The notes under the pieces were generated by a model. The model did no database searches. It had not been told where the DNA came from and worked only from the letters and a program-made list of their open reading frames with translations. The position numbers were made by a program, and so were the translations under genes. DNA of 64,000 nucleotides from a virus (taxonomy: Duplodnaviria; Caudoviricetes), in IMG/VR virus record IMGVR_UViG_3300028888_000052; one strand, given 5' to 3'. Positions 33,844 through 59,334 of the stretch are shown piece by piece. Numbering within the stretch: position 1 is the stretch's first letter; the number at the start of each line of letters is the position of its first letter.

Positions 33844-35692
33844 ACGAAATAAATAATAGAAATATGAGTTGGCATTTAATTACAATGATTGTTCTTTCAA
33901 TTCTCTATCTTAGTTGGAAGATTTATATATATTCAAGAAGTATTGAATTTAGTTATTGGTTAAAACCTGGTGAAACTTATAAGGAACATACAAAATATGA
34001 ATGGTTTTGGATTAATTTTCGCCGTCGTCGTAAAGAATTTAAAATTATTATAAAGAAATATTTTGAGTGGTATGGCTTCAAGCATGTATATCCAATTATC
34101 ATTGCTTGGCTTATCTATGGTGGAATTTTTATTTGGTAAATTATGTCACGTACTTATCGTAAATATGTAAAGTGTGGAGTTTGTACTGGGTCTAATACTG
34201 AGTACTACCGCGATATGAATCGCAAGTGTCGTTCTAAGAATCGTCATACTCTTCGTAATATGATTGCCAATTATGATGTTGAAGTAGTTTCTGACATTAT
34301 TCCTCTTGGTGAAGTACCTATACATGATTCTTGGGATGAACCAACTGATGGCACATTTATTGTTTCAAGGAGAAACAAGAAGGATTACATGTATGAGTTC
34401 GATGGTTCTCCAACAACTAATAATCATTATGGAACTGGTGAAAACTATTGGAATCATAGATTTGGTAAGTATCTTAAGCCTAAGAATCGTAAACATTACA
34501 GAACTGTTTAATTATGACAGATAAGTATAAAGATATAGTTGAACGTTATTCATGGGATAATCGACCTACTTATGTTAAAGCATCCTATGCATTTGACGAT
34601 ACAATGTATGTATTGGATAGGTTAACTACTGGTAGCCTTGCCCATAATCTACCAAATGTAAAAACTAAGTTAGAACGTTTAATGGCTGCTTATTTGGAAG
34701 AATCTGAAAATTTAAGAATAGCAAATAGAGAAATACGAAAACTTAAAAAAGAATTGAATAAATGATTAAGAATGAATATGGTTACTTTATAAATGAAGGT
34801 GGATGTGAAGCTGGAGCTATAGCACATGTAAGAGTGTTTGCAATGACGACATGTAGTAATAAAGCAAAATATAAAATTACACTTGATAATGGTAAATCTA
34901 TTAATGTATGTGGCACACATCTTCGTCAGTATTATAAAACCGATTGGGATGATAAACCAATTAAAGGTGTCTATATTAAACAAGTAACTAAAGTTGAAGA
35001 AATTAAAACAAATAAAGTAATATATGAAAAGCGATAGAGAACTTTTAATAATGCTTATTGAAGCTATAGATTATTCTTTTTGGAATCCAACAGATAGAAA
35101 ATATAACATGGAACTTACATGGCCTGTAATTGATAAGGTAAATTATATTAAAGGTATTTTATCAAAAACTAATTAATATGAATCTGATACAACTTAAAAT
35201 TTTGGATTATGATGGAAGTATAATTAGTGAGTATTTCTTCCATACAGAAAAACCACGTGATTATTTCTGCACTCTAGATTATACTTTGAATAAGACTTTT
35301 CTTGAATGGCTTAAGACAAATAAGCCTACTCTATATAAAGAGATAGGAAATCATGAGATCGATTTCTTCTATTATCATGAAGATTCTTTAGAAACAATTT
35401 AATATATAAAGGAACTATGAATTATTATGGATGGGGTTGGCCTGAAACATTGGCCAGTTGTTTGATAACTTTGATATTTTGTATTTTATTTGGTGCTTTT
35501 GGTGGCCTGATATTTATGGCCCTTTGGAATTGGCTTGCACCTATATTTTGGACACAGGCTCCACAATTGACATTTCTACAAGCATGGGGAGTTATTATTC
35601 TACTTTCATGGATTGGAAGTTTCTTTAGGTCCAAATCTAAGTGACCGTTAATTATTATTTGTTTTATTTATTCCCATAGAATTTTCATATAT

Positions 35693-35733
35693 TATTTGAA
35701 TTTTTTATGGGAATTTCTATATTTATATTGTAA
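35693..35733 (+). promoter_or_regulatory. Repeated early promoter
   Basis: tatttgaa-N16-ctatatttatattgtaa. Confidence 0.8.
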
Positions 35734-36875
35734 AAACAAATAATATTTAATTATGAAGAAGTTAATTATAAATTTTCTACCAGAGTGGAAGATCGAAAAT
35801 GCAATTAAGAATTGGAAATTCTACCTCATTAATGTTGGTGGTTATATTTGTCGTGACAATAATAATCTTATCATTACTTGGGAGAATGATAATAAACCAT
35901 CGGTAGTACATCATATTATTGATGTTTGTGATGATCTTCTTGCTGATGAATGGGTAGTTGAACCTTTTCTTTATGATGAGATTCGCAATCTTCATAATGA
36001 TATGACTATTATCTATGATTATACAACTAATTATCTAGAAGTTAAGTAATATGAAATTAGAAGAAGCAATAGGAATAATTAATAGTATGGTTGAGATTGC
36101 AGAAGGAAGTAATAGTTGTGATCTGCAACTCGATGAAGATGAGATAAATGCTCTTAAGACTGTTCGAAATTATATATATCGACAGAATAAGATGTATGAT
36201 AAATTAAGTAAAGAAGACATCGAAGAGGAGAGAAATCAAAAAGGGTTTTATTATTGTGGTAAAGAGGTAAGTTGGAATGAAATTCCATTAAATGTTCGAA
36301 AGCATGATTATCCTTACTATTTTGATAAGAATGGAAATGATTGTTACCCAGAAGTTGTGAATTGAATATGACATACGAAGAACATATTGGGCATTTTAAA
36401 AATTGGTATATTAACCATAAAGATTATTCTAAGTGGCAAAAATTGTTAGATATCTATAAATTGGATAATGAAGATATTGTTTCAATTTATGCAAAGGAAA
36501 CAAATATAATTGCCACTGATAGAGTTGATTATTGGACAGAAGAATTTGTAGCTGAAAATATCTTAAATTAATATGATTTACGCAAAGTGTATTAAAGAGA
36601 CATATACGTGGGAAGGTGATAATGAGCAACACAAGTTTTCTAAAATTGTTGAAGGTCATACCTATGGATTTAATAAAATTGAAAATACATATTGGATAGA
36701 TCCAGAAGCTTGTTCTACAGAGGATTTCATGGATAGAGATGGATTTATCAATGCTGTAGCTCGTGGATTAGATAAGAAATATTTTGATGAAATGTTTAAA
36801 ATTATTTCATAATTTTTTGAATAATGTTAATTTTTGATAAATTGACATAATTTATTAAATAATATATAAAAAATA

Positions 36876-54700: not shown

Positions 54701-55411
54701 TATCTACTAATGGTCAAAAAATTATATTCGAAAGCACTATTTTATGAAAGATATAAATGCCGACACTCAATTTGACGAAAATGAATTAACAGATTATCCT
54801 TATTTAGGTATAGGTAGAAAACCAAGACCCGGAAAAATGATATCCGAAGAAGTATTAGAGAAAATAATAGGAGGATAATTTCTATATTAAATAAAATATT
54901 AAGTAATACATGTTAGTAAAAGAATTAATTGAAAAATTAAAAGAGCAAGATCAAGAAGCTCAAATAGTTTTTTGTGATAGAGCTGGGCTTATTAATGATT
55001 TAGTATTTGATAGAATATTTTCAGATGAATTTGAAGGTAGAAGAATTGTACCTTTATTTATAGGTCCAAGATATTTTGAAAAGGAGACACCAGAAATAGA
55101 AACTAAAGATGAAAATAGCGATACTAATTAATCCATTAAAATCATTACAAGCTAATATTATACTTGATCAAACGCCTTTCAAGTATGATATTAGCTCTAT
55201 ATCTGATAATAAACGATTTATCCCATCTGAAGATTTTTTTGGATTTTGTCAAGATTTGTTAGGAGATCAATTTGGTAAAAGAGAGAATTGCTATGTTGTG
55301 TGTCTTGATATAGATAATGAAGATTCACTTATAAATCCGATAAGTTTGGTGTTATCTAATTTTGTAGAAAACATAGATAAAGATTTTAAAGAAAATGAAA
55401 ATAACAGATGA
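51717..55411 (+). other. Block of hypothetical ORFs incl. a predicted lipoprotein (52306-52611, FLSC lipobox) and a QVKEKWG + CxxC protein (53089-53433)
   Basis: Co-directional ORFs; motifs read from the translations. Confidence 0.65.
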
Positions 55412-55979
55412 ATATGTCTTTTTTTATAAAGATTGGTTAAGTAATTATCAAAGAACCAGTTTTGTTGCTAATATAGATGATATTCTTGGTAAGACTGATG
55501 GTTTGATGAAAGAATTGTTTACATCAACTGAACAAGGATTTATGTTTATTAAAGCATTGTATTTTAATGATTTAAAAACTGCATCAAAAATCATTAAGAC
55601 AAATAATCCGGCCGAATGTCGTAAACTTGGCCGTCAAGTTAAAGGATATAATGATGAAGCTTGGGATAAAATTAGATATGACGTATTTTATTATCTTAAC
55701 CTTGAAAAATATAAGCAAGATAGACAATTACAATATCTTTTATTAGATAAGAAATTTGATCATAAAATTTTTGTTGAAGCTTCTCCAATAGATAGGATTT
55801 GGGGTGTAGGTTATGCAGAAGATGATGATAGAATTGAATATCGAGAATTTGATTGGGGTAGGAACTATCTTGGCAAAATCATAACTAATATTAGAAATAG
55901 AATATTACTAAATAAATTAGAGGATCCAAATTGGAATATTTACAATTATTGGGGTAAAGGAGATGAAAGCGATAGGTAA
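55395..55979 (+). CDS. NADAR family protein (YbiA-like)
   Basis: YVFFY..WLSNY, FTSTEQGFM..KA..F.D, P..CRKLGRQVKGY....W, VEASP.DRIWGVG, WGRNYLG. Confidence 0.93.
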   Translation: MKITDEYVFFYKDWLSNYQRTSFVANIDDILGKTDGLMKELFTSTEQGFMFIKALYFNDLKTASKIIKTNNPAECRKLGRQVKGYNDEAWDKIRYDVFYYLNLEKYKQDRQLQYLLLDKKFDHKIFVEASPIDRIWGVGYAEDDDRIEYREFDWGRNYLGKIITNIRNRILLNKLEDPNWNIYNYWGKGDESDR

Positions 55980-56031: not shown

Positions 56032-56736
56032 ATGATAGAGTGGAATAAATATTTTGACCATATATACTGTATTCATTATAAACCTCATGTTGAAAGATTT
56101 GATGAATTAAATGAAGAATTAAAAAGGGTTAGAATATTAGATTCAGGTATATTTGAGTATTTCTATAGTGATGTAGATAAGACAAAATATAAAATACCAG
56201 CTAATAAAGTTACAATACATCACAAAAGATGTATTTTAGATGCTTTAAGTAATAAATATGATAGAATATTGATTTTAGAGAATGATATAAGATTCTTGAA
56301 AGATTTATCTATTATGAAAAAATATTTAGAGCAAATACCTAAAGATGCTGATATGGTATGGTTTGATTATATATATGGATATGAATTATCTGAAATTGAT
56401 AGATATAAAAAATTAGATAAAGATTCTCTATATATAAATGTTGGACATGAAAATAGAATATTTTCTGCCGCTTGTTATATGTGTTCTAATCAAATGCAAA
56501 GACATTTGCTTGAATGCTATTCAAGATATCAAACCACCCCGGATTATTTTACTTGGTACAATCCTTTTGCACCTGACCAATTTAGAGATAAATTATTAAA
56601 TAGGTACATTGTAAATAAGAATATTGCTATTCAAAAGGTATTTGATGATAATCTTAGAGCTACATTACATGGAGAAAATAATACATATAAAAGATATACA
56701 TATCAAGGTTTAAATTTGGAAGACTATAATATTTAG
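56032..56736 (+). CDS. Glycosyltransferase family 25-like
   Basis: FDHIYCIH....ER, H...I.DAL..KYDRILILENDI.F, D.DMV, SAACY. Confidence 0.75.
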   Translation: MIEWNKYFDHIYCIHYKPHVERFDELNEELKRVRILDSGIFEYFYSDVDKTKYKIPANKVTIHHKRCILDALSNKYDRILILENDIRFLKDLSIMKKYLEQIPKDADMVWFDYIYGYELSEIDRYKKLDKDSLYINVGHENRIFSAACYMCSNQMQRHLLECYSRYQTTPDYFTWYNPFAPDQFRDKLLNRYIVNKNIAIQKVFDDNLRATLHGENNTYKRYTYQGLNLEDYNI

Positions 56737-56783
56737 TCTTCCATTTATTTTTTAAATGATTTTAACATAAATTTTTTATATAA

Positions 56784-56825
56784 TATTTGAAAAAATAATT
56801 TTTGTTTCTATATTATATATGTAAA
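56784..56825 (+). promoter_or_regulatory. Repeated early promoter driving the micro-ORF string
   Basis: tatttgaa-N16-ctatattatatatgtaa, followed by an A-rich leader and ATG at 56845. Confidence 0.8.
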
Positions 56826-56844
56826 ACAAATAAAAATAAAAACA

Positions 56845-56889
56845 ATGAATAAAAGAAACAAACCCCCGCCCACCCAAATAGATTTATAG
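56845..56889 (+). CDS. Micro-ORF MNKRNKPPPTQIDL
   Basis: First ATG after the promoter, at a typical distance; CCC CCG CCC codons. Confidence 0.5.
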   Translation: MNKRNKPPPTQIDL

Positions 56890-56939
56890 ATAATGATAAT
56901 GAATTTGAATATATTAATGAATCTTAAATAATTTGAAAC

Positions 56940-56966
56940 ATGATAAAATCTAGAGATCGACCCTGA
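56940..56966 (+). CDS. Micro-ORF MIKSRDRP
   Basis: A-rich context; GC-rich codons; ends Pro-stop. Confidence 0.4.
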   Translation: MIKSRDRP

Positions 56967-57009
56967 TTAAGATATATATGATATAAATTGATGATAATTA
57001 TTAGAATAA

Positions 57010-57084
57010 ATGAAAAAAACTAACGAAGGAGATAGAAAATCCGGTGGAAAGTTTTCCAAATATTTGGTTTTAGATCCACCTTAA
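57010..57084 (+). CDS. Micro-ORF MKKTNEGDRKSGGKFSKYLVLDPP
   Basis: Ends Asp-Pro-Pro-stop. Confidence 0.45.
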   Translation: MKKTNEGDRKSGGKFSKYLVLDPP

Positions 57085-57098
57085 TAAAGTCCACAACT

Positions 57099-57122
57099 AT
57101 GGCACGAGCATCCCCCAAATAA
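57099..57122 (+). CDS. Micro-ORF MARASPK
   Basis: GC-rich island in AT-rich DNA; RASP motif. Confidence 0.4.
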   Translation: MARASPK

Positions 57123-57175
57123 AATAAAATATTTTTTAATTCTAAATTGTACTTAAACTATTTTATAAATATAAT

Positions 57176-57403
57176 AAGAGACGAGAATTATGTTGTGAAA
57201 CATACGTCTTTGTATCACCACATTAGACAATATATCCAAGAGTTATATAGATGGCGCTACTAAATACCGGACATTCTCGATTAGCGAAGGCGTTTGCCAT
57301 CAATAATCATTTATGAGATCTGCATGGAGATACGGTCGCAACCAAGTTTAGTTGAGGAATATTAATGGTGATTTTGATGAGGACTCATAAGAGTCCTCTT
57401 TTT
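57176..57403 (+). ncRNA. Putative structured non-coding RNA (~225 nt), family unknown
   Basis: No long ORF, elevated GC, upstream ctattttataaat element, several helices incl. a GNRA-capped stem, own terminator. Confidence 0.65.
57379..57403 (+). terminator. Intrinsic terminator
   Basis: gaggactc-ataa-gagtcctc-ttttt. Confidence 0.9.
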
Positions 57404-57459
57404 GTGTAATTATATCTCTATTTTTACTATTTTAAATTTAATCATTTGAATAATAGTGT

Positions 57460-59334
57460 ATGACATCAGACGTAATTATAAGTAGAGAAATTATTGAAAA
57501 TAACATAAAAGATTGGGTATTCGAAAAAATTAGTGAGAAATTTGAATTTAGACAACACCAATTAGAATGTATTGTTAATATTATTGATAATATCCTTTCT
57601 CATGGTAATCACAATTATGTGGTTGAGGCTCCTACCGGTTCTGGTAAATCTTTAATTAATATAATAGCTGCTGGAGTTTTGGCAGATTATTGGGATATTA
57701 CTTCATATATTCTTGTTTCAGATTTATTTTTATGGGAACAGTATTCTGATTTCTTAGTAAAGCATAAGAAAACAGGAATTGCTATGCTTAAAGGTAAGAT
57801 AGGTAATTATAAGTGTATGCTTAATGGTGAAGATATTACTTTAGCAGATTGTACACTTTCTGGTTTATCTTGGGCCTCTATGTATAATTTAAACACAATC
57901 AAAGAATATGGATATGATTGTGCTCATTCATGTCAATATGTTAAAGCACGTAAAAAAGCAGTTAAGTCTAAAGTTTGTTTAATGACATATCAGTTATTTA
58001 TACAAACATTCAAGATGATTAACCCAGATGATAATAATCCATACCAATTCAAATATCGTGATGTGATATTCTGTGATGAGTGTCATAATATTCCAAGTAT
58101 TGTAGAACAAAGAGTACATGCTCATATTAAAGAAAAAGATCTTAAAACTTTATTGGAAATTTATGATTATGTAAATAATAAAGAATTAGATTTATTTGAA
58201 AATCTTGAAGAGGATCAATCTAGTAAACCATTTATAAATATGACCCGTCAAGATGTTATAAATGAATTTAATGAATGTTGGAAAGTATTAAGTAATCCAG
58301 AATCACGAAAAGATGAAGATATGATATATCGAGAAAGATATGATGTATTGATTCAAAAATTCGTGCCAGTATGTGATGATATTAGAAATAAGATTACTTT
58401 AATGAAGAAATCTAAACAACACTTATCTAAAGAGGATTTGCATATGTTTAGTATTTCTAATTGGTTTTGGGATTATGCCCTTGAATTTGGTGAATATTGT
58501 GGACTTATTTCATTTTGTGGTAAAGAATATCAATTAAAAGAAATTGCTCCTGATAATAGAAAAGAAGAAGGTCCTGTTTGTACTTTTAGATGCCTTAAAG
58601 AAGATTATTTAGTGTATAAATATTTGTTAACAAAAGCTCAATGGAGAGTTATGTTATCTGCTACTATTGGTGGTCATGAGGCATTTGATGAGAATATGGG
58701 ATTTACTTATACAGAAGATCAAAAATCTTTAATGGAAGTTATACCTTCAACTTTTGATTTTACTGAGTCACCAGTTCATTTCTTGAATAAATTCAAAATG
58801 TCATTGAAAGAACGTGATATTTCATTTGGTCATCTCAAGACAGTTATATATTCTATTTGTAATACCAAATTTAAAAATCAAAGAGGAATGATACAAACAG
58901 GATCTTATGATATTGCAAAAAGATTATATGACCAAGCACCATTAGAAATAAAACAAAGAATGTTGGTTTATAATGGGTCAAGAGAAAAGAACACGATGAT
59001 TAAAATTCATCAAATGTCAGATAATACAATATTGGTTGGACCTACATTGAATGAAGGTATTGATTTACCAGGTGATGAATGTAGATTTATTATCATTATG
59101 AAAGTCCCATATCCAAGTCTTGGTGATAGATATGTAAAAGAGAAAATCAAGTTTTATCCCTTATGGTATAATTCAACAACATCTAATGAAATTATCCAAG
59201 GTATTGGTAGAGGAGTAAGATTTGATGGTGATTGGTGTGTCACATATATATTTGATGCTTGTTTCTGGAATTTATATTGTTCCACTAAAGAGCAATATTC
59301 ACAAGAACTCCAAGATAGAATTAACATAATTTAA
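57460..59334 (+). CDS. DinG/XPD-like SF2 helicase
   Basis: Q motif FRQHQ, EAPTGSGKS, KG..NY.C and Cys cluster, DECH, LSAT, EGIDLPGDECRFIII.KVPYP, QGIGRGVR...DW. Confidence 0.9.
   Translation: MTSDVIISREIIENNIKDWVFEKISEKFEFRQHQLECIVNIIDNILSHGNHNYVVEAPTGSGKSLINIIAAGVLADYWDITSYILVSDLFLWEQYSDFLVKHKKTGIAMLKGKIGNYKCMLNGEDITLADCTLSGLSWASMYNLNTIKEYGYDCAHSCQYVKARKKAVKSKVCLMTYQLFIQTFKMINPDDNNPYQFKYRDVIFCDECHNIPSIVEQRVHAHIKEKDLKTLLEIYDYVNNKELDLFENLEEDQSSKPFINMTRQDVINEFNECWKVLSNPESRKDEDMIYRERYDVLIQKFVPVCDDIRNKITLMKKSKQHLSKEDLHMFSISNWFWDYALEFGEYCGLISFCGKEYQLKEIAPDNRKEEGPVCTFRCLKEDYLVYKYLLTKAQWRVMLSATIGGHEAFDENMGFTYTEDQKSLMEVIPSTFDFTESPVHFLNKFKMSLKERDISFGHLKTVIYSICNTKFKNQRGMIQTGSYDIAKRLYDQAPLEIKQRMLVYNGSREKNTMIKIHQMSDNTILVGPTLNEGIDLPGDECRFIIIMKVPYPSLGDRYVKEKIKFYPLWYNSTTSNEIIQGIGRGVRFDGDWCVTYIFDACFWNLYCSTKEQYSQELQDRINII

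Follow-up and report, generated by a model that had tools for sequence, protein, structure and literature searches.

The window analyzed here (the whole stretch of DNA, 64,000 nucleotides in length) is AT-rich phage DNA in which nearly all genes lie on the + strand, and its phage resembles the T4-type and jumbo phages. A gene-free gap of 723 bp (56737-57459) was found between a GT25-like gene on the 5' side, which encodes 234 aa and has homologues bearing PF01755, and a DinG/XPD-like helicase gene on the 3' side (57460-59334), with the domains Helicase_C_2, ResIII, and DEAD_2. The helicase showed 77-87% identity to proteins on IMG/VR contigs, for which CheckV put 75 kb at about a quarter of the genome, and its closest named relatives were those of the Prevotella Lak megaphages, with 40% identity. 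Furthermore, DNA of the window was present in sheep, goat, and bovine gut metagenomes (14 studies). A NADAR-domain gene (55395-55979) was kept just 5' of the GT25-like gene or the cassette region in several lineages, and it was also found in L012, L013, L018, and L048.

The gap holds a structured RNA element of about 230 nt on the + strand (57171-57403). It was the sole GC peak of at least 42% within the gap, with a GC content of 40-44% at 57200-57350 compared with 28% over the 64-kb window, which was in agreement with the GC-elevated unit described in the first-pass annotation. The same annotation had called the stretch non-coding. No ORF of at least 40 aa spanned the gap under four codes (table 11, TAG=Q, TGA=W, and TAA=Q), and the indels between lineages were of 1, 2, and 4 nt and not multiples of three, so that no reading frame was conserved; a small protein gene was rejected on these grounds. 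Elsewhere in the window, a further GC peak (46%) was observed at 35483-35598, inside a region without an ORF of at least 90 aa (35038-35752). It gave no Rfam or tRNA match and may represent small genes or a second structured RNA. The features of the locus, in order, are as follows.

57158-57165, + strand: promoter-type 8-mer, -10-like, before the RNA; conserved at this place in L006, L007, L011, and L008
57177-57211, + strand: 5' hairpin (H1), present in the MFE folds of all full-length lineages but L008
57177-57183/57205-57211, + strand: outer stem of H1; sequence varies between lineages
Between the outer and inner stems, + strand: internal loop of H1, 5 nt
57189-57194/57199-57204, + strand: inner stem of H1; 100% paired, one compensatory pair; recurs in four lineages
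57195-57198, + strand: GNRA tetraloop of H1, GUGA or GCGA; recurs in four lineages
57214-57220/57366-57372, + strand: closing helix (Hc), kept in L007 and L011
57221-57258, + strand: variable peripheral segment between Hc and the core; length and sequence poorly conserved
57259-57264/57347-57352, + strand: helix Hb; 6 pairs, 98% of cells paired, 4 of 6 compensatory
57266-57269/57333-57336, + strand: helix Ha; 4 pairs, 94% paired, 2 changed on both sides; three to four different sets of pairs among the lineages
57270-57274, + strand: junction strand between Ha and the arm, 5 nt; invariant in all lineages but L008
57275-57278/57315-57318, + strand: outer helix of the arm; 100% paired, 2 compensatory pairs
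57279-57291/57296-57308, + strand: inner helix of the arm; 79% paired, 4 compensatory pairs
57292-57295, + strand: loop of the arm
57309-57314, + strand: 3' internal loop of the arm
57319-57321/57328-57330, + strand: small hairpin, 3 bp; sequence kept in all lineages but L008, no covariation, pairing putative
57322-57327, + strand: loop of the small hairpin, invariant 6 nt
57331-57332, + strand: 2-nt junction, invariant and unpaired
57337-57346, + strand: conserved bulge, invariant and unpaired in part
57379-57403, + strand: intrinsic terminator; hairpin 57379-57398 with an 8-bp GC-rich stem and a 4-nt loop, then a U run
57427-57434, + strand: second, identical 8-mer, 33 nt before the helicase start codon at 57460

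Homologues of the element were gathered outward from the neighboring proteins and with one metagenome pattern scan. They came from six lineages of uncultured jumbo phages of ruminant guts, namely that of the window and those of L007/L011, L048/L049, L051/L052, L008, and L022. The copies were the following.

L005: identical to the copy in the window
L006: near-identical to the copy in the window
L007 and L011: about 88% identity to the copy in the window at full length, 98% in the core
L048 and L049: distant copies
L051 and L052: distant copies
L008: distant copy
L022: mini version of 52 nt (L022:1797-1848), with 33.6 bits and an E value of about 1e-6 in the core covariance model

The RNA is a cassette with a patchy distribution. 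In each of the six lineages, it had the same orientation as the helicase gene and ended 45-100 nt 5' of it; its upstream neighbor was the GT25-like gene, an ORF of 78 aa, or an ORF of 53 aa. Close relatives of the helicase gene were preceded by a mere spacer of 55-80 nt and no RNA in L050, L060, L061, and the contig of P0006, and a protein gene stood in place of the RNA in L001-L003. The core identity was 62-69% among the distant lineages, compared with about 70% for the DNA of their helicase genes. For the window and L007, the figures were 98% in the core, 86% in the helicase gene, and 77% in the GT gene.

No similar DNA was found in 50,697 GenBank phages, and the exact and degenerate pattern scans of IMG/VR gave nothing or chance matches in coding DNA. 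The pattern scan of JGI metagenomes returned one true match (L011) and one chance match (L010). Among 21 IMG/VR and 6 GTDB loci anchored on the helicase, only L022 had the RNA, and a model search over 15 whole IMG/VR records likewise found L022 only. The RNA family is thus nearly absent from IMG/VR, the L022 mini version being the sole find there. No second copy of the RNA was found within the window. In addition, most contigs with relatives of the GT25-like gene were too short to reach the RNA. Many such public contigs stopped about 95 nt beyond the gene, which indicated that assemblies break at the extremely AT-rich stretch 56740-56850 (9-14% GC), and the downstream RNA is therefore hidden in short-contig data. 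GTDB MAGs with the labels Firmicutes, Clostridia, or Erysipelotrichaceae included contigs with this phage helicase (L054, ONIZ01000001.1, 410 kb; and L055-L059), which are likely phage genomes binned as bacteria.

The five-helix structure of the core (100 positions) was tested on a plain MAFFT alignment (A9). Pairing was found in 88% of the cells, compared with 32-41% when the 3' partners were slid by 1-3 columns, and 10 of the 30 pairs were changed on both sides. The covariation score was 0.333 against 0.184, and none of 500 shuffles reached it, although with only five or six independent lineages relatedness inflates such statistics. When L022 was added, 12 of the 30 pairs were changed on both sides, in an alignment that is model-based and biased towards structure. 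Against shuffles, the fold of the single sequence showed a modest advantage (z = -2.1 on the + strand and -4.2 on the - strand); the case for structure is therefore comparative and not thermodynamic. From this comparison of sequences, the element is a conserved RNA gene, non-coding and folded, with covariation in six phage lineages. A novel phage ncRNA had been proposed from the window sequence, and the covariation across lineages bore this out.

In the core, the stacked helices Hb and Ha enclose an invariant unpaired junction, an optional long arm, and a small hairpin. The long arm (57275-57318) was cleanly missing from the L022 mini version, which kept Hb, Ha, the junction strands, and the small hairpin. 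A pairing suggested by Alifold (57269-57272/57319-57322) was dropped in favor of Ha, for which two-sided changes were seen in three lineages. Two long-range pairings of the first-pass annotation fell away. In L007 and L011, the helix 57250-57255/57296-57301 was broken at two positions; the local partner of 57296-57301 is instead 57286-57291, with which it forms the tip of the long arm. The pseudoknot 57182-57188/57273-57279 had no counterpart in L048, L051, L008, or L022, and 57275-57278 is taken by the covarying helix with 57315-57318. Inspection by eye for K-turn and tetraloop-receptor motifs gave nothing convincing.

Around the core, the comparison predicts a 5' hairpin capped by a GNRA loop and a closing helix. 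Taken together, H1 and the closing helix were 93% paired, with compensatory changes in 5 of 12 pairs. The 5' hairpin was recovered much as first drawn: the short stem agacg/cgtct was confirmed as part of the outer stem 57177-57183/57205-57211, and the inner stem with its GNRA loop (57189-57204) recurred across lineages with its compensatory pair. The closing helix fared less evenly. Hc taken alone was not above chance in the single-sequence test; L007 and L011 retained it, and in L048/L049, L051/L052, and L008 its topological place was taken by helices of 8-9 bp that differed in sequence, where 4 of 8 pairs were compensatory (alignment A8). It is plausible that 57214-57220/57366-57372 is the likeliest form of the closing helix in the lineage of the window, its exact partner being uncertain. 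In the peripheral segment that corresponds to 57221-57258, L007 and L011 had a small hairpin capped by GAAA. The strong terminator noted earlier was also upheld, with compensatory and wobble changes among L006, L007, and L011 of the window clade, and each lineage had its own strong hairpin and U run at this site.

The CTATTTT element noted upstream at 57158 proved to be part of a recurring 8-mer. With A or T as its fifth base, the 8-mer had 23 copies on the + strand of the window, and 12 of them lay 20-60 nt before an ORF start (at distances of 28-48 nt) compared with 1.6 expected (P < 0.001). The 8-mer seems to be the -10 part of a three-part early promoter; the copy at 57158-57165 lacked the upstream TTG at the spacing of that promoter. 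Related motifs were found before the helicase gene in L048, L051, L008, and L022. Recombination between the two copies that bracket the RNA could lead to gain and loss of the cassette. This would be consistent with the promoter cassettes known from T4-type phages.

The + strand is favored for the RNA, mostly on account of the terminator and the loop: the U run was on the + strand in all lineages, and the loop remains GNRA on that strand (GUGA or GCGA). Furthermore, all neighboring genes lie on the + strand, as does the promoter-type 8-mer at 57158-57165. The wobble test was weakly discriminating, with 11 G-U cells against 7 A-C cells, and the core pairing was 88.3% on the + strand and 86.5% on the - strand, the z-score of the single-sequence fold being the better one on the - strand. 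Expression had weak support in that four metatranscriptome runs from three studies contained 35-54% of the words sampled across the whole gap, where it is to be noted that RNA libraries can carry DNA.

The element was compared with all 4,227 families of Rfam 15, which extend over tRNA, tmRNA, RNase P, SRP, 6S, group I and II introns, riboswitches, small ribozymes, Y RNA-like RNAs, and orphan motifs. No match was obtained over the whole 64-kb window at the gathering thresholds, and at E values up to 10 the region 56500-57900 gave chance matches of at most 22 bits, none of them on the + strand of the element. Similarly, L007, L008, L048, and L051 gave no match at E values up to 1. ARAGORN found no tRNA or tmRNA gene in the 64-kb window. 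The early impression that the RNA was not a tRNA, tmRNA, or RNase P was therefore supported, and its novelty stands with respect to Rfam. A group I intron was rejected as well, the element not lying within a gene and having no Rfam match. Type III antitoxin RNAs consist of tandem repeats with a unit of 34-36 nt. Because no internal or window-wide repeats of the element were found, an antitoxin RNA of this type was rejected, and a mimic of one, which had been among the early suggestions, is unlikely.

Phage T4 encodes two stable RNAs of small size, rnaC (species 1) and rnaD (species 2), which are annotated in NC_000866 and to which no function has yet been assigned (PMC9697503). Like them, the RNA described here would be a discrete small RNA encoded by a large virulent phage of the myovirus type. 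On the T4 locus, however, the score of the core model did not exceed 11 bits, and rnaC and rnaD (L062:1909-2172) were not hit; a MAFFT alignment of these with the rumen-phage RNA was meaningless. In T4, both RNAs lie in a tRNA cluster and are cut from a tRNA precursor, whereas the rumen-phage RNA comes with a promoter element and a terminator of its own, and there is no tRNA gene in the 64-kb window. The orphan motifs raiA, ROOL, and GOLLD and the phage candidates from IMG/VR, of which 8,495 candidate structured RNAs were reported (PMC10690425), are likewise defined solely by covariation, have no assigned function, and are often associated with phages and often provided with their own terminator. 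The text of that paper had no mention of helicase, rumen, or jumbo phages. The rumen-phage family is much smaller than ROOL and GOLLD. The ssNA-helicase RNA motif of Rfam, which we take to be a helicase-associated motif of phage-like regions, is similar in that it is structured and precedes helicase genes in phages, but the scans of the 4,227 families, in which this motif is presumably included, gave no match. Accordingly, the RNA is a new and narrowly distributed family of a familiar kind, an orphan structured phage ncRNA with an unusually clean modular anatomy.

A discrete stable RNA is favored by the complete layout of promoter, RNA, and terminator, by the further promoter element ahead of the helicase gene, and by the absence of a conserved antiterminator. 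We therefore consider, with about even confidence, that a separate promoter-RNA-terminator cassette gives rise to a stable folded RNA of about 230 nt that binds a partner and acts in trans. What the analysis shows is the RNA family, with its fold and its setting of promoter and terminator; the discrete transcript and the binding partner are what we infer beyond that. The promoter-type element at 57158-57165 would drive the RNA and the intrinsic terminator at 57379-57403 would end it, so that it would be released as a discrete transcript. The covarying helices would then hold the invariant junction in shape, perhaps helped by docking of the GNRA loop, and the junction would bind a specific partner, which may be a small ligand or a protein of the phage or its host. 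During infection, the RNA would act in trans as a scaffold, decoy, or sensor RNA and not as part of an mRNA.

The fixed site just 5' of one gene in all six lineages speaks against a separate transcript in so far as it is equally what one would see if the RNA were the cis-acting leader of the helicase operon. Such a leader would be riboswitch-like or a protein-dependent attenuator, in which the core senses a ligand or protein and sets the passage through the terminator at 57379-57403. The same gene is always directly downstream and co-oriented while the upstream neighbor varies, the terminator lies 45-90 nt ahead of the start codon, and an invariant unpaired junction in covarying helices with an optional arm is typical of aptamers. 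Only 6 nt separate the L022 core from its terminator, and a promoter motif of its own is lacking; no recognizable promoter element was found between the conserved upstream block and the mini core, which may be part of a longer leader. The terminating riboswitches of the Gram-positive type share with the element the invariant unpaired junction, the variable arms, the terminator shortly before a gene, and the fixed site upstream of one gene. They differ from it in that here no antiterminator is conserved, a promoter-type element stands between the terminator and the gene, and no known class was matched, even at E = 10. The best antiterminator partners of either terminator arm had 4-9 bp (P = 0.09-1.0 against shuffles) and lay at non-homologous places in the six lineages, so the alternative pairing was neither conserved nor above chance. 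The intervening 8-mer is identical to that of the RNA itself, and the helicase gene need not rely on read-through; moreover, close relatives have the same helicase gene without such a leader. We regard a cis-acting leader as the main rival explanation, possible but less likely than not.

A small self-cleaving or otherwise catalytic RNA would have its active site in the minimal core of about 52 nt, with the arm and the outer helices as stabilizing additions. The compact core with its invariant unpaired bases persists as the 52-nt version in L022, the arm is modular, and the GNRA loop could serve tertiary docking. Small ribozymes in phage DNA have a patchy, cassette-like distribution, and that of the RNA is similar. 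On the other hand, no ribozyme family of Rfam 15 was matched, a transcript with its own promoter and terminator offers no obvious reason for cleavage, and the junction (5 nt, 0 nt, and 2 nt) presumably does not fit the cores of the hammerhead, twister, pistol, or hatchet. Catalysis thus appears improbable. Even less can be said for an element acting as DNA, that is, part of a replication origin or recombination cassette by the replication helicase gene, with hairpins in single-stranded DNA or a transcript that is merely a primer or R-loop. The gap adjoins the helicase gene and includes the stretch of 9-14% GC at 56740-56850, L022 has iteron-like tandem units of 86-92 bp, and the pairing is nearly strand-symmetric. 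However, an RNA gene is what covariation of several helices, invariant junction bases, a promoter element, a terminator, and a kept GNRA loop point to; the window itself has no repeats, and the AT-rich and micro-ORF part is missing in L007 and L011, which do have the RNA. We regard this explanation as very improbable. Chance hairpins in a decaying intergenic remnant, with no function, would explain why the single-sequence fold barely beats shuffles, and individual 7-bp helices are expected by chance. This is scarcely credible, being contradicted by the conservation and compensatory changes in six lineages and by a covariation score unmatched in the shuffles.

A more speculative reading concerns the part of the RNA that does the work. 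The invariant core of about 52 nt (the helices Hb and Ha, the junction strands of 5 nt and 2 nt, and the small hairpin with its fixed loop of 6 nt) might be where a hitherto undescribed class of functional RNA has its active site, either a small ribozyme or an aptamer of jumbo phages that senses a ligand or protein, with the arm and the GNRA hairpin as tertiary stabilizers; or the RNA might be a decoy that disarms a host defense protein binding RNA. We consider this unlikely on balance.

The RNA adjoins a conserved array of micro-ORFs ending in proline, in a region gained and lost as a unit. Upstream of the RNA, a block at 57016-57126 was conserved in L006, L048, L049, L051, and L008 and was nearly invariant at 57086-57108. 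A hairpin in this block (57043-57048/57077-57082) had two compensatory pairs only. A frame of 24 codons from 57010 was broken in L006 by an A run one base longer, and this frame was hence not conserved. In L022, three tandem units of 86-92 bp were found 5' of the helicase gene (L022:1440-1700), each with a promoter-like stretch and a micro-ORF of 6 codons ending in Arg-Asp-Arg-Pro-stop, and micro-ORFs of the same type were present in the window at 56940-56966 and 57099-57122. The tandem units look like amplified minigene cassettes or iterons. A functional coupling of the RNA to the adjacent micro-ORFs had been suggested at the outset. It is not obligatory, as the micro-ORF block is missing in L007 and L011, where the RNA is present; in L022, however, the upstream block passes directly into the mini core. 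The RNA and the micro-ORF array may be a joint accessory module with a regulatory or anti-host role.

The jumbo phages of gut anaerobes are almost wholly uncultured. Here, one intergenic stretch has led to a small RNA family with a defined fold, a modular arm, a natural minimum of 52 nt, and invariant unpaired bases, and the RNA is defined well enough for synthesis and for direct tests of partner, ligand, and catalysis. Should the RNA prove to be no more than a helicase leader, it would nonetheless represent a new class of cis-regulatory element in phages.
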